Shown here piece after piece: positions 26,046 through 26,188 of a stretch of 64,000 nt of DNA. How positions within the stretch are numbered: position 1 is the stretch's first letter; each line of letters begins with the position of its first letter. A program made the translations under genes and the position numbers. The notes beneath the pieces are model-generated. The model was not told the DNA's origin, did not search any database, and worked only from the letters and a program-made list of their open reading frames with translations. The DNA lies in the NCBI GenBank assembly GCA_031701365.1, contig GCA_031701365.1_4118.1, one strand, 5' to 3'. Origin of the DNA: Escherichia coli. GTDB taxonomy: Bacteria > Pseudomonadota > Gammaproteobacteria > Enterobacterales > Enterobacteriaceae.

Positions 26046-26078
26046 AAAAAAGTGGTTGACTTCGGTCAGCCATTTTGT
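26046..26078 (+). terminator. terminator hairpin with embedded promoter
   Basis: A-run, AAGTGGTTGAC-TTCG-GTCAGCCATTT hairpin, T-run; stem contains TTGACT-17-TATTAT; family copies at 30090, 32682, 34604. Confidence 0.55.
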
Positions 26079-26188
26079 TATTATATAATCATTGAGAGAT
26101 AGCTCACTAGCCCACAGGGTGCAGGAGTGTATCTATTGTATAATGTTTGAGTACTGAAAACTATTTTAAAGTATTTGATAAAAAGTAC

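Follow-up and report, generated by a model that had tools for sequence, protein, structure and literature searches.

A promoter-bearing, terminator-like hairpin and a separable structured RNA module in DNA of an Asteriusvirus-like jumbo coliphage

The DNA studied here is a stretch of 64,000 nucleotides from an Escherichia coli assembly (contig GCA_031701365.1_4118.1), called the window below. From ~17.5 to 35.7 kb nearly all plausible genes are small and lie on the plus strand, and their counterparts are annotated as hypothetical in the phages 121Q, RaK2, Munch and fEgEco12. At four sites in this region (26046-26140, 30090-30180, 32682-32775 and 34604-34690) an earlier note had described a cassette made of an A-run, a hairpin, a T-rich tail and a short conserved module, and all four copies do have these parts. 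We find that two separable conserved elements are superimposed at these sites, a bifunctional hairpin and a module RNA (Table 1). The records of 121Q, RaK2, Munch and fEgEco12 annotate no RNA or regulatory feature at the cassette or module sites, and a tRNA scan found no tRNA.

A megablast search with 24-36 kb of the window matched 116 phage records, headed by the Escherichia phages PBECO4, 121Q, SP27 and fEgEco12. The top matches showed 88-97% identity across only ~50-60% of the query. These matches identify the window as DNA of an Asteriusvirus-like (121Q/PBECO4) jumbo coliphage, the 24-36 kb part of which is mosaic between isolates.

The four hairpins begin 3-12 nt past the stop codon of the upstream open reading frame (ORF) and share one layout, consisting of the A-run, a G+C stem, usually a UUCG-type loop, and a U-rich tail; none of 200 shuffles folded as stably. 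The proposed 12-bp stem holds for three copies, the fourth having 11 pairs and one mismatch. TTGAC is found in the 5' arm of all four, so that the motif TTGACT, earlier placed in the stem, lies there except for its final T, which is in the loop. The -10 motif follows after a 17-bp spacer in every copy, as had been noted, and reads TATTAT in three and TACTAT in the fourth; the two bases before it are TG in the three scanner-listed copies and AG in the fourth. The scanner called three of the four hairpins both promoter-like and terminator-like. These three have the form of an intrinsic terminator, a G+C stem-loop followed by a U-rich tract, with the tails UUUUGUUAUUAU and UUUGCUAUUAU, and the fourth combines its stem mismatch with the tail UUUAGUACUAU. 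The dual purpose suggested for the hairpins is thus borne out as far as their build is concerned, since a terminator-like structure carries the -35 box and a correctly spaced -10 box in 4/4 copies and the design is conserved in relatives. Once transcribed, the hairpin would resemble an intrinsic terminator that probably works in both directions; in double-stranded DNA the TTGAC of its 5' arm would be the -35 box, with the tail TGnTATTAT 17 bp on. One stretch of ~40 bp would in this way end the incoming transcript and restart transcription.

Hairpins of the type TTGAC-loop-complement were sought in the window and in ~470 kb of related-phage DNA, which gave 66 distinct hairpins, 35 with a module behind them and 31 without. 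The module-less ones lead straight to a ribosome-binding site and an ATG; at least ten of them are found in RaK2, 25-30 nt before the ribosome-binding site and ATG. Although the outer stem had not been pre-selected, the full set of four outer pairs is present in 51 of the 63 distinct sites, which use 12 different outer stems between them (GGGA/TCCC, GTGG/CCAT, GGAG/CTCC, GTAC/GTAC and others); UUCG is the commonest loop. Since the outer pairing is kept with so many different stems, the hairpin itself is under selection, with the -35 box as a fixed passenger in the stem. The hairpin is a generic cassette of RaK2-like jumbo phages, used with or without the module. The genes behind the cassettes are unrelated to each other, and paralogy of these genes was rejected as a candidate explanation.

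The closest known relatives of this arrangement are the promoter-early stem-loop (PeSL) cassettes of T4-like phages (Arbiol et al. 2010, PMC2839356; Comeau et al. 2014, PMC4122927). In each case a small composite terminator/promoter element unites AT-rich upstream sequence, a sigma70-like promoter and a stem-loop, recurs among the small genes of unknown function of a plastic early region and shows exchange between its copies; like the PeSLs, the cassettes of the window would isolate each gene block in transcription. The strong sigma70-like promoter with AT-rich upstream sequence that defines a PeSL is found here as TTGACT-17-TATTAT after the A-run, and a stable stem-loop placed against upstream transcription is present as a predicted fold that overlaps the promoter. 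The differences are that the -35 box here lies in the terminator stem and the -10 box in the U-tail, whereas the PeSL stem-loop stands beside its promoter, that the phages concerned are RaK2-like jumbo phages, that PeSLs have no counterpart of the module with its helices H1, H2 and H3 described below, and that the breakpoints in the window fall at another cassette, consisting of a promoter and a 5' stem-loop. The hairpin is thus a more compact form of the PeSL design, in which promoter and terminator overlap and do not merely adjoin.

The module is the second element. A search of the window for its core GCCCAYAGGGTGC with up to 2 mismatches gave 9 matches against 0.39 expected, and 0/100 shuffles reached 9. 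Altogether there are 11 modules in the window, seven on the plus and four on the minus strand. Only four have their -35 box inside a terminator hairpin; the other seven follow an ordinary promoter outside any hairpin. Together with the 31 of 66 hairpins that have no module, this speaks against treating hairpin and module as one composite unit, as the earlier note had done. The opposite-orientation cores that it listed (here placed at 16993, 19465 and 21630) are real, but they are not bare, each having its own minus-strand promoter at the same distance. The copy at 27795, taken as partial, turned out to be a full copy with its own promoter, and 19407(+) and the variants 17150(+) and 17209(-) had been missed.

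Two identical terminator-like hairpins, AGCCCACCTTAAACAGTGGGCT followed by a T-run, lie at 22,445-22,466 and 23,180-23,201; GCCCAC is common to them and the module core, but they are linked to no promoter and do not count as copies of the module.

Every module in the window, on either strand, stands behind a promoter with a -35 box (TTGACT, TTGACA, TTGCTT or TTGCTA), a spacer of 16-18 bp and a -10 box (TATTAT, CATAAT, TATAAT or TACTAT). The -10 box ends 19-27 nt upstream of the core in all 11 copies. In most cases transcription is predicted to start at the A of a CAT seven bases past the -10 box, and the core would then begin ~13-21 nt into the RNA. Taking the window together with the IMG/VR loci, 73 of 90 core matches have a promoter at the right distance, representing 60 distinct copies. 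From this linkage the module appears to be the 5' ~45 nt of RNAs made from a dedicated set of strong sigma70-type promoters. The module is a transcribed RNA element with structural constraints of its own and not a DNA appendage of the terminator.

The first of its helices, H1, comes directly after the start and has a stem of 3-5 bp and a purine-rich loop of 6-8 nt (AGAUAA, GCGAAA, AGAACAA, GAGAAA). It was found with 19 distinct stems, and at least 4 bp are formed in 33 of 59 copies compared to a shuffle mean of 8.8 and maximum of 16; short-form copies have no H1. A covariance model, R1, was built from 14 copies of identical geometry; the module at 26091-26134 matches it with 56.5 bits (E 4e-16). 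Each of the four H1 pairs has two-sided changes in the R1 alignment (31, 24, 48 and 33 sequences); two-sided cells of H1 and H2 together number 138, against 50 +/- 6 in shuffles (0/500 reach it), and the covariation score is 0.368 versus 0.130, and at most 0.057 with partners slid, all these counts being taken from an alignment that was fitted to the model.

After a CUA-like linker follows the second helix, H2, of the form R-CCC-loop-GGG-U. All four of its pairs are present in 89 of 90 copies. The closing pair alternates between A-U and G-U (45 and 44). Sixteen different loop sequences occur, 77 copies having a 3-nt loop and 13 a 4-nt one. A profile search that made no use of structure returned CCU/AGG double changes in three copies of related phages (L016:4101, L008:4551 and the 121Q copy L039:3224); the window orthologue of the 121Q copy reads CCU/GGG. 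The third helix, H3, has the form GGGUGCR-NNNN-UGYRUCY, in which an R-U pair closes a 4-nt loop. Its 3' strand, the 'TGTATCTAT' box, is complementary to GGGUGC if wobble pairs are allowed, and the spacing between the two is fixed at 6 nt. The fractions of copies paired at the successive positions are 0.66, 1.00, 1.00, 0.88, 0.98 and 0.88, and the means at other offsets are 0.25-0.68; only U or C occurs opposite G and only A or G opposite U. Including variant cores the helix is 88% paired, compared to 30-57% with partners slid. Compensatory variants were also seen, namely GGGCGG/CCGUCC in Munch and GGGUGG with C opposite. Taken together, the pairing evidence for H3 is suggestive, not decisive.

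H2 and H3 share the near-invariant GGGU and are therefore mutually exclusive. With mean energies of -3.9 and -2.8 kcal/mol they are nearly iso-energetic, H3 being the stabler one in 47 of 90 copies. Whether 'TGTATCTAT' pairs at long range, or as a pseudoknot, with the 5' region or the loop of H1 was tested as well, and the idea was rejected, the mean longest helix being 4.93 versus 4.83-4.91 in controls.

Because of its G-U pairs the H3 segment folds with -4.2 kcal/mol on the sense strand and with -0.8 on the antisense strand, and this asymmetry argues for RNA (or single-stranded sense DNA) and not for a duplex-DNA site. The near-invariant sequence at a fixed distance from the promoter, and inverted pairs of modules that look like two half-sites, would suit a double-stranded site RCCCAYNGGGTGC, acting as an operator or roadblock at +20 to +33 or as a nuclease or recombinase site. 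The core is, however, no true palindrome, as GCCC...GGGT needs G-T pairing; at least three G-U pairs in H3 leave only one strand able to fold, and the loop is either 3 or 4 nt long. We consider a DNA site highly unlikely.

The module might also be translated. In such a mini-ORF GGGUG would be the Shine-Dalgarno sequence and an AUG or GUG six bases on the start of M-Y-L-stop, masked by H2 or H3. U is found at position 6 in 53/59 and G at position 7 in 39/59 copies, a correctly spaced NUG occurs in up to about two-thirds, and several copies read AUG UAU CUA UAG. The start G is however missing in 20/59 copies (35/90 in the wider set), neither reading frames nor stops are conserved, and the variable positions obey pairing rules and not codon rules. 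With the start codon missing in at least a third of the copies this candidate was rejected, and we give it almost no weight. Likenesses noted by eye to the type I-F CRISPR repeat hairpin, the ops element (GGCGGTAG), the CsrA GGA-loop site and N4 promoter hairpins were rejected as well; they apply to a minority of copies or fail at defining bases.

Two mutually exclusive hairpins that share one strand right after the start are reminiscent of attenuators and of riboswitch expression platforms. Unlike in those, a U-tract follows the module in few copies (at least 5 U in the 8 nt after H3 in only 11/90, 12%), which counts against an attenuator, there is no leader peptide or aptamer, and both hairpins are weak. 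H3 as a general terminator was therefore rejected. At 17150(+), H3 (17157-17176) is followed by U7 and was called terminator-like by the scanner, the sole H3 of the window to qualify.

The modules occur in three transcription contexts. In the first, the module begins a putative stand-alone small RNA. The copy 21630(-) lies on the strand opposite to all neighbouring genes, with the order promoter, module, AGUACUG, A-rich stretch and a predicted bidirectional terminator hairpin (21569-21589) 40 nt past the core, which would also serve the plus-strand gene ending at 21563. In relatives a terminator-like hairpin begins +34 to +40 past the core in eight copies, and at exactly +39 in six of them. 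An own promoter, a length of 50-300 nt, an intrinsic terminator and the absence of an ORF, as expected of a stand-alone small RNA, are found at 21630(-) and in at least eight copies of relatives and are not found in the plus-strand leader copies.

In the second context the module is a leader. The copies 26110, 30148, 32746, 34665 and 27795 run without a terminator into a second promoter 80-115 nt further on, which has its own 5' stem-loop, a Shine-Dalgarno sequence and a gene. Behind 27795 this gene (28066-28323) encodes a DksA/TraR-like C4 zinc-finger protein and is annotated as such in 121Q, fEgEco12 and Munch. The product could be a binder of the RNA polymerase secondary channel that is expressed from the terminal repeat. 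Just past the same module, at 27,826-27,870, lies a cluster of TGATCA/GATC palindromes (TTGATCAAAAAATGATCTGATCAATACTTGATCAA), an altered form of which is kept in 121Q.

In the third context two modules face each other, as in the pair 19407(+)/19465(-) and the variant pair 17150(+)/17209(-). Such convergent pairs are also present in Munch-like and other related phage DNA, with cores 45, 56 or 63 nt apart. In Munch/Kae01-like relatives a palindrome resembling a Fur box (AATGATAATCATT) is located between or just past convergent pairs (related-phage loci L001 ~8,085-8,110; L005 ~1,290; L027; L035 ~6,095 and 8,400; L160 ~1,040). No such site lies near a module in the window, in which only matches with 2 mismatches were obtained, at a level near chance (20 versus 9.4 expected; 2/100 shuffles reach 20).

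It is the 5' ~45 nt that are conserved, no matter what comes after them, and this part should therefore function either in cis, on the polymerase or transcript that carries it, or in trans. A trans-acting, multi-copy small RNA or decoy, of which the ~45-nt 5' domain made from ~11 strong early promoters sequesters or guides a host or phage factor, is in line with the four of 11 window copies on the gene-less strand, with the complete promoter-to-terminator gene of ~104 nt at 21630(-) and with the narrow placement of the terminator-like hairpins in relatives, as well as with invariant GGGUGC/CCC next to variable loops. There is a precedent in PA5oct, a distantly related Pseudomonas jumbo phage of which the terminal repeat yields two abundant non-coding RNAs (PMC7318152). 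A purely trans role does not explain why the plus-strand copies continue into a second promoter and gene with no terminator in between; in addition, neither complementarity nor similarity of the module to E. coli DNA could be detected, there is no known binding partner, and the module is absent from the PA5oct repeat. We see this as a real, though minority, possibility. The PA5oct RNAs are single-copy transcripts of 236-451 nt (PMC7318152) and, like the predicted module RNAs, non-coding products of a long terminal repeat in a related jumbo phage lineage; unlike these they are unrelated to the module in sequence, and they were rejected as its homologues.

One reading with action in cis is processive antitermination, in which the nascent hairpins, alone or with an N-like protein, would enable polymerase that began at these promoters to pass the many terminators of the early region. 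The lambda nut sites (boxA/boxB) and the HK022 put sites are short nascent-RNA hairpins just downstream of early promoters. The module resembles them in being promoter-proximal at a fixed position, with one or two small hairpins near the 5' end, and in occurring on both strands of an early region dense in hairpins and rich in terminators; moreover, four copies would restart transcription exactly at strong predicted terminators, at the head of gene blocks of 2-4 kb. It is unlike them in that no boxA-like element was seen by eye (no pattern search was made), in that the H2 loop, unlike that of boxB, varies in length and sequence, and in having 11 copies instead of two, some of which have nothing but a terminator behind them; similarity is lacking in sequence and in Rfam as well. 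Minus-strand copies would furthermore cause antisense read-through, a terminator is kept at a fixed distance in one window copy and many copies of relatives, and no N-like or Q-like gene was identified, none having been searched for. Antitermination of this type is a doubtful explanation.

The distribution of the module was followed beyond the window. R1, searched against 327 kb, gave 120 matches at E <=1, of which 11 are those in the window. In a pattern scan of IMG/VR, multi-copy matches were found only in contigs of 345-378 kb; one of these is RaK2 at 100% identity, and one set is related to fENko-Kae01, Munch, SE_PL and 7t3, the first a Klebsiella phage and the others Salmonella phages. 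With copies in 121Q, fEgEco12, RaK2 and Munch the family covers at least three named genera plus unclassified relatives. Matches in other contigs and in bacterial genomes are single, promoterless and about as many as chance predicts, by our own estimate of ~1,000 bacterial-genome matches in 596 Gb. A host origin or host target was rejected since there is no match in E. coli and the bacterial matches are scattered singles. An Rfam scan of 14-38 kb at E <=10 returned no hit at the modules and five hits elsewhere, all far below the gathering scores. In a literature search with the core sequence and for descriptions of promoters and RNAs of RaK2, CBB, 121Q and fEgEco12 the module was not described; the CBB paper (PMC5259590) lists RpoD-like promoters and terminators separately and contains neither the hairpin cassette nor the module. 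The module is a distinct, previously undescribed structured RNA family.

Its location in the genome is restricted. Phage fEgEco12 has experimentally supported termini with a direct terminal repeat of 20,993 bp (PMC13070987). Its position 1 aligns to window position 15,904 and the end of its repeat to ~36,100, and all 11 window modules (16,981-34,689) fall inside this interval matching the ~21-kb direct terminal repeat; core search, profile search and covariance model gave none elsewhere in the 64-kb window. The fEgEco12 genome has 12 copies, at 1,110-19,567, and nine copies in RaK2 are clustered within 16.5 kb of a 50-kb stretch, the DNA homologous to which lies in the predicted terminal repeats of the phages Muenster and fENko-Kae01. 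The terminal-repeat segment is the first DNA to enter the cell, and the modules are concentrated in this first-injected genome end.

The ~1.7 kb after the fEgEco12 base-1 match (15,904-17,580) have no plus-strand ORF of at least 50 aa and carry three copies of the module and an 8-nt tandem repeat, ACGGCTAA (16,679-16,812). At 16,936-16,850 on the minus strand, a promoter TTGACA-17-GATAAT with a GGGG..CCCC hairpin behind it is directed leftward, at the tandem repeats and the genome-end match, and no ORF comes after it.

The earlier suggestion of a mobile or duplicating cassette can be judged from differences between phages. One fEgEco12 copy, at 9553, is a hybrid of two window copies, its 5' half being that of 26110 and its 3' half that of 32746, and the 121Q copy L014:5709 is composed likewise of 34665 (5' half) and 30148 (3' half). 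Copies therefore exchange short patches, with junctions in the invariant core. These mosaic copies and the unrelated genes behind the cassettes fit a duplicating or gene-converting cassette. The larger breakpoints against 121Q and fEgEco12 (18.1-18.3, 23.4, 25.3-25.6, 29.0-29.4 and 30.4-30.5 kb) do not coincide with the hairpin cassettes and lie at a second class of promoter cassette. The latter is present in ~25 copies at 17,530-35,270 (e.g. 25,261-25,325 and 32,805-32,901) and consists of an A-rich region, AGTACTTGCAA-16-TATAAT, a 5' stem-loop GGGGA..TCCCC, a Shine-Dalgarno sequence and an ATG; it is the closer functional analogue of the PeSL shuffling points. That the hairpin and module are a PeSL-like recombination or duplication cassette and nothing else, with a core that has no RNA function, would agree with the exchange between copies, with their position before unrelated genes and with the mosaicism of the region between phages. 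Apart from the location of the breakpoints, it is contradicted by the conservation of core and structure, and not of flanks, across very divergent genera, and H1 covariation and wobble-compatible variation would not be expected in a patch of DNA homology. We regard it as improbable.

We therefore favour the reading that the module works at the RNA level, as a 5' tag which immediate-early transcripts have in common and which a trans-acting factor reads, and consider it evenly poised between right and wrong. The RNA would be made as a terminated small RNA of ~100 nt, as a leader running into a second promoter and gene, or from convergent pairs. Its GGGUGC segment would be masked alternately by H2 or H3, and a trans-acting factor of the phage or the host would read it. 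The plus-strand copies at restart points favour a role in cis; a role in trans is suggested by the minus-strand copies that have no gene behind them and a terminator at a fixed distance. The likeliest outcome, held tentatively, may be control in cis of the polymerase or transcript just downstream, deciding between read-through and stop or directing processing; titration of the factor in trans might be a nearly equal alternative.

Several observations weigh against this reading. Formal two-sided covariation is thin for H2 and H3; H3 has five two-sided cells, a number reached by 28/500 shuffles. One H3 strand is near-invariant, partly through the way in which copies were collected, and transitions alone could mimic the pattern of pyrimidines and purines opposite it. 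H2 and H3 are both weak hairpins. Four of 11 copies face away from all genes, one of them followed by a strong terminator, which counts against a role of the module in elongation in cis. No candidate for the factor was identified, and a literature search found no Asteriusvirus transcriptome, so that starts, ends and termination are predictions here.

Table 1. Positions of the hairpins and modules in the window
Feature	Position	Strand	Details
Terminator-like hairpin 1	26049-26076	+	12 bp, UUCG loop, -15.9 kcal/mol, z -5.7; few bases past short upstream ORF
-35 box of hairpin 1, TTGACT	26056-26061	+	within 5' arm
-10 box of hairpin 1, TATTAT	26079-26084	+	TG at -15/-14; 17 bp past -35; in U-rich tail; predicted start A 26091
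Hairpin 2	30092-30119	+	12 pairs, -19.5 kcal/mol, z -5.9; -35 30099-30104; -10 30122-30127
Hairpin 3	32685-32712	+	12 pairs, -18.5 kcal/mol, z -5.8; -35 32692-32697; -10 32715-32720
Hairpin 4	34609-34636	+	11 pairs and one mismatch, -14.4 kcal/mol, z -4.1; -35 34616-34621; -10 TACTAT 34639-34644
Module behind hairpin 1	26091-26134	+	H1 26093-26106 (UGAG/CUCA); H2 26110-26120 (GCCC-ACA-GGGU); H3 26117-26134 (GGGUGCA-GGAG-UGUAUCU)
Short-form module without H1, behind hairpin 2	core 30148-30160, H3 to 30172	+	
Module behind hairpin 3	core 32746-32758, H3 to 32770	+	60.3 bits
Short-form module behind hairpin 4	core 34665-34677; element 34609-34689	+	
Module with ordinary promoter	27739-27819, core 27795-27807	+	TTGACA-17-CATAAT; no terminator hairpin
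Convergent module pair	19354-19526	+ and -	+ promoter 19354, core 19407-19419; - promoter 19526-19498, core 19465-19477; cores 45 nt apart
Variant convergent pair, 4-nt core loops	17095-17276	+ and -	+ core 17150-17163; - core 17209-17222, promoter 17276-17249; E 0.15 and 9e-4
Minus-strand module	16981-17060, core 16993-17005	-	TTGCTT-16-TATAAT; 41.5 bits; in 1.7-kb non-coding stretch by genome-end match
Stand-alone small-RNA gene (predicted)	21560-21698	-	promoter 21698-21670, start ~21663, core 21630-21642, terminator 21569-21589, RNA ~104 nt

Two further features of the window were noted. The palindrome AGTACT occurs 253 times compared to 19 expected (0/100 shuffles), about every 250 bp in genic and intergenic DNA of the whole window, and is absent from one stretch of 4.4 kb (35,965-40,401). 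It adjoins -35 boxes (AGTACTTGCAA), lies in promoter spacers (CAGTACTGTATAAT) and comes after the module (AGTACTGAAAA). At 13,819-15,619 and 36,164-38,062 there are two runs of tightly packed, partly overlapping ORFs of ~60-75 aa with no promoter cassettes between the genes; the first run has repeated gene ends (ATATACAGGTACTAAT) and resembles a family of tandem paralogues.

Phages similar to RaK2 and 121Q are being developed for therapy. The present analysis provides a predicted map of transcription-unit boundaries in the first-injected ~20 kb and defines a conserved, unannotated RNA family. The terminator-plus-promoter part of ~40 bp is unusually compact and could serve as a synthetic insulator. 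It is possible, though we put it forward with reserve, that the module constitutes a new class of phage regulatory RNA, a bistable 5' tag with which every immediate-early transcription unit in the terminal repeat of RaK2-like jumbo phages is provided. By way of a dedicated factor it would either make the host RNA polymerase terminator-resistant, as a new system in the manner of nut or put with ~10 sites in each genome, or disarm a host protein that binds RNA or serves in defence. Should this RNA indeed control the processivity of the polymerase or neutralise a host factor, it would represent a new mechanism of early take-over.

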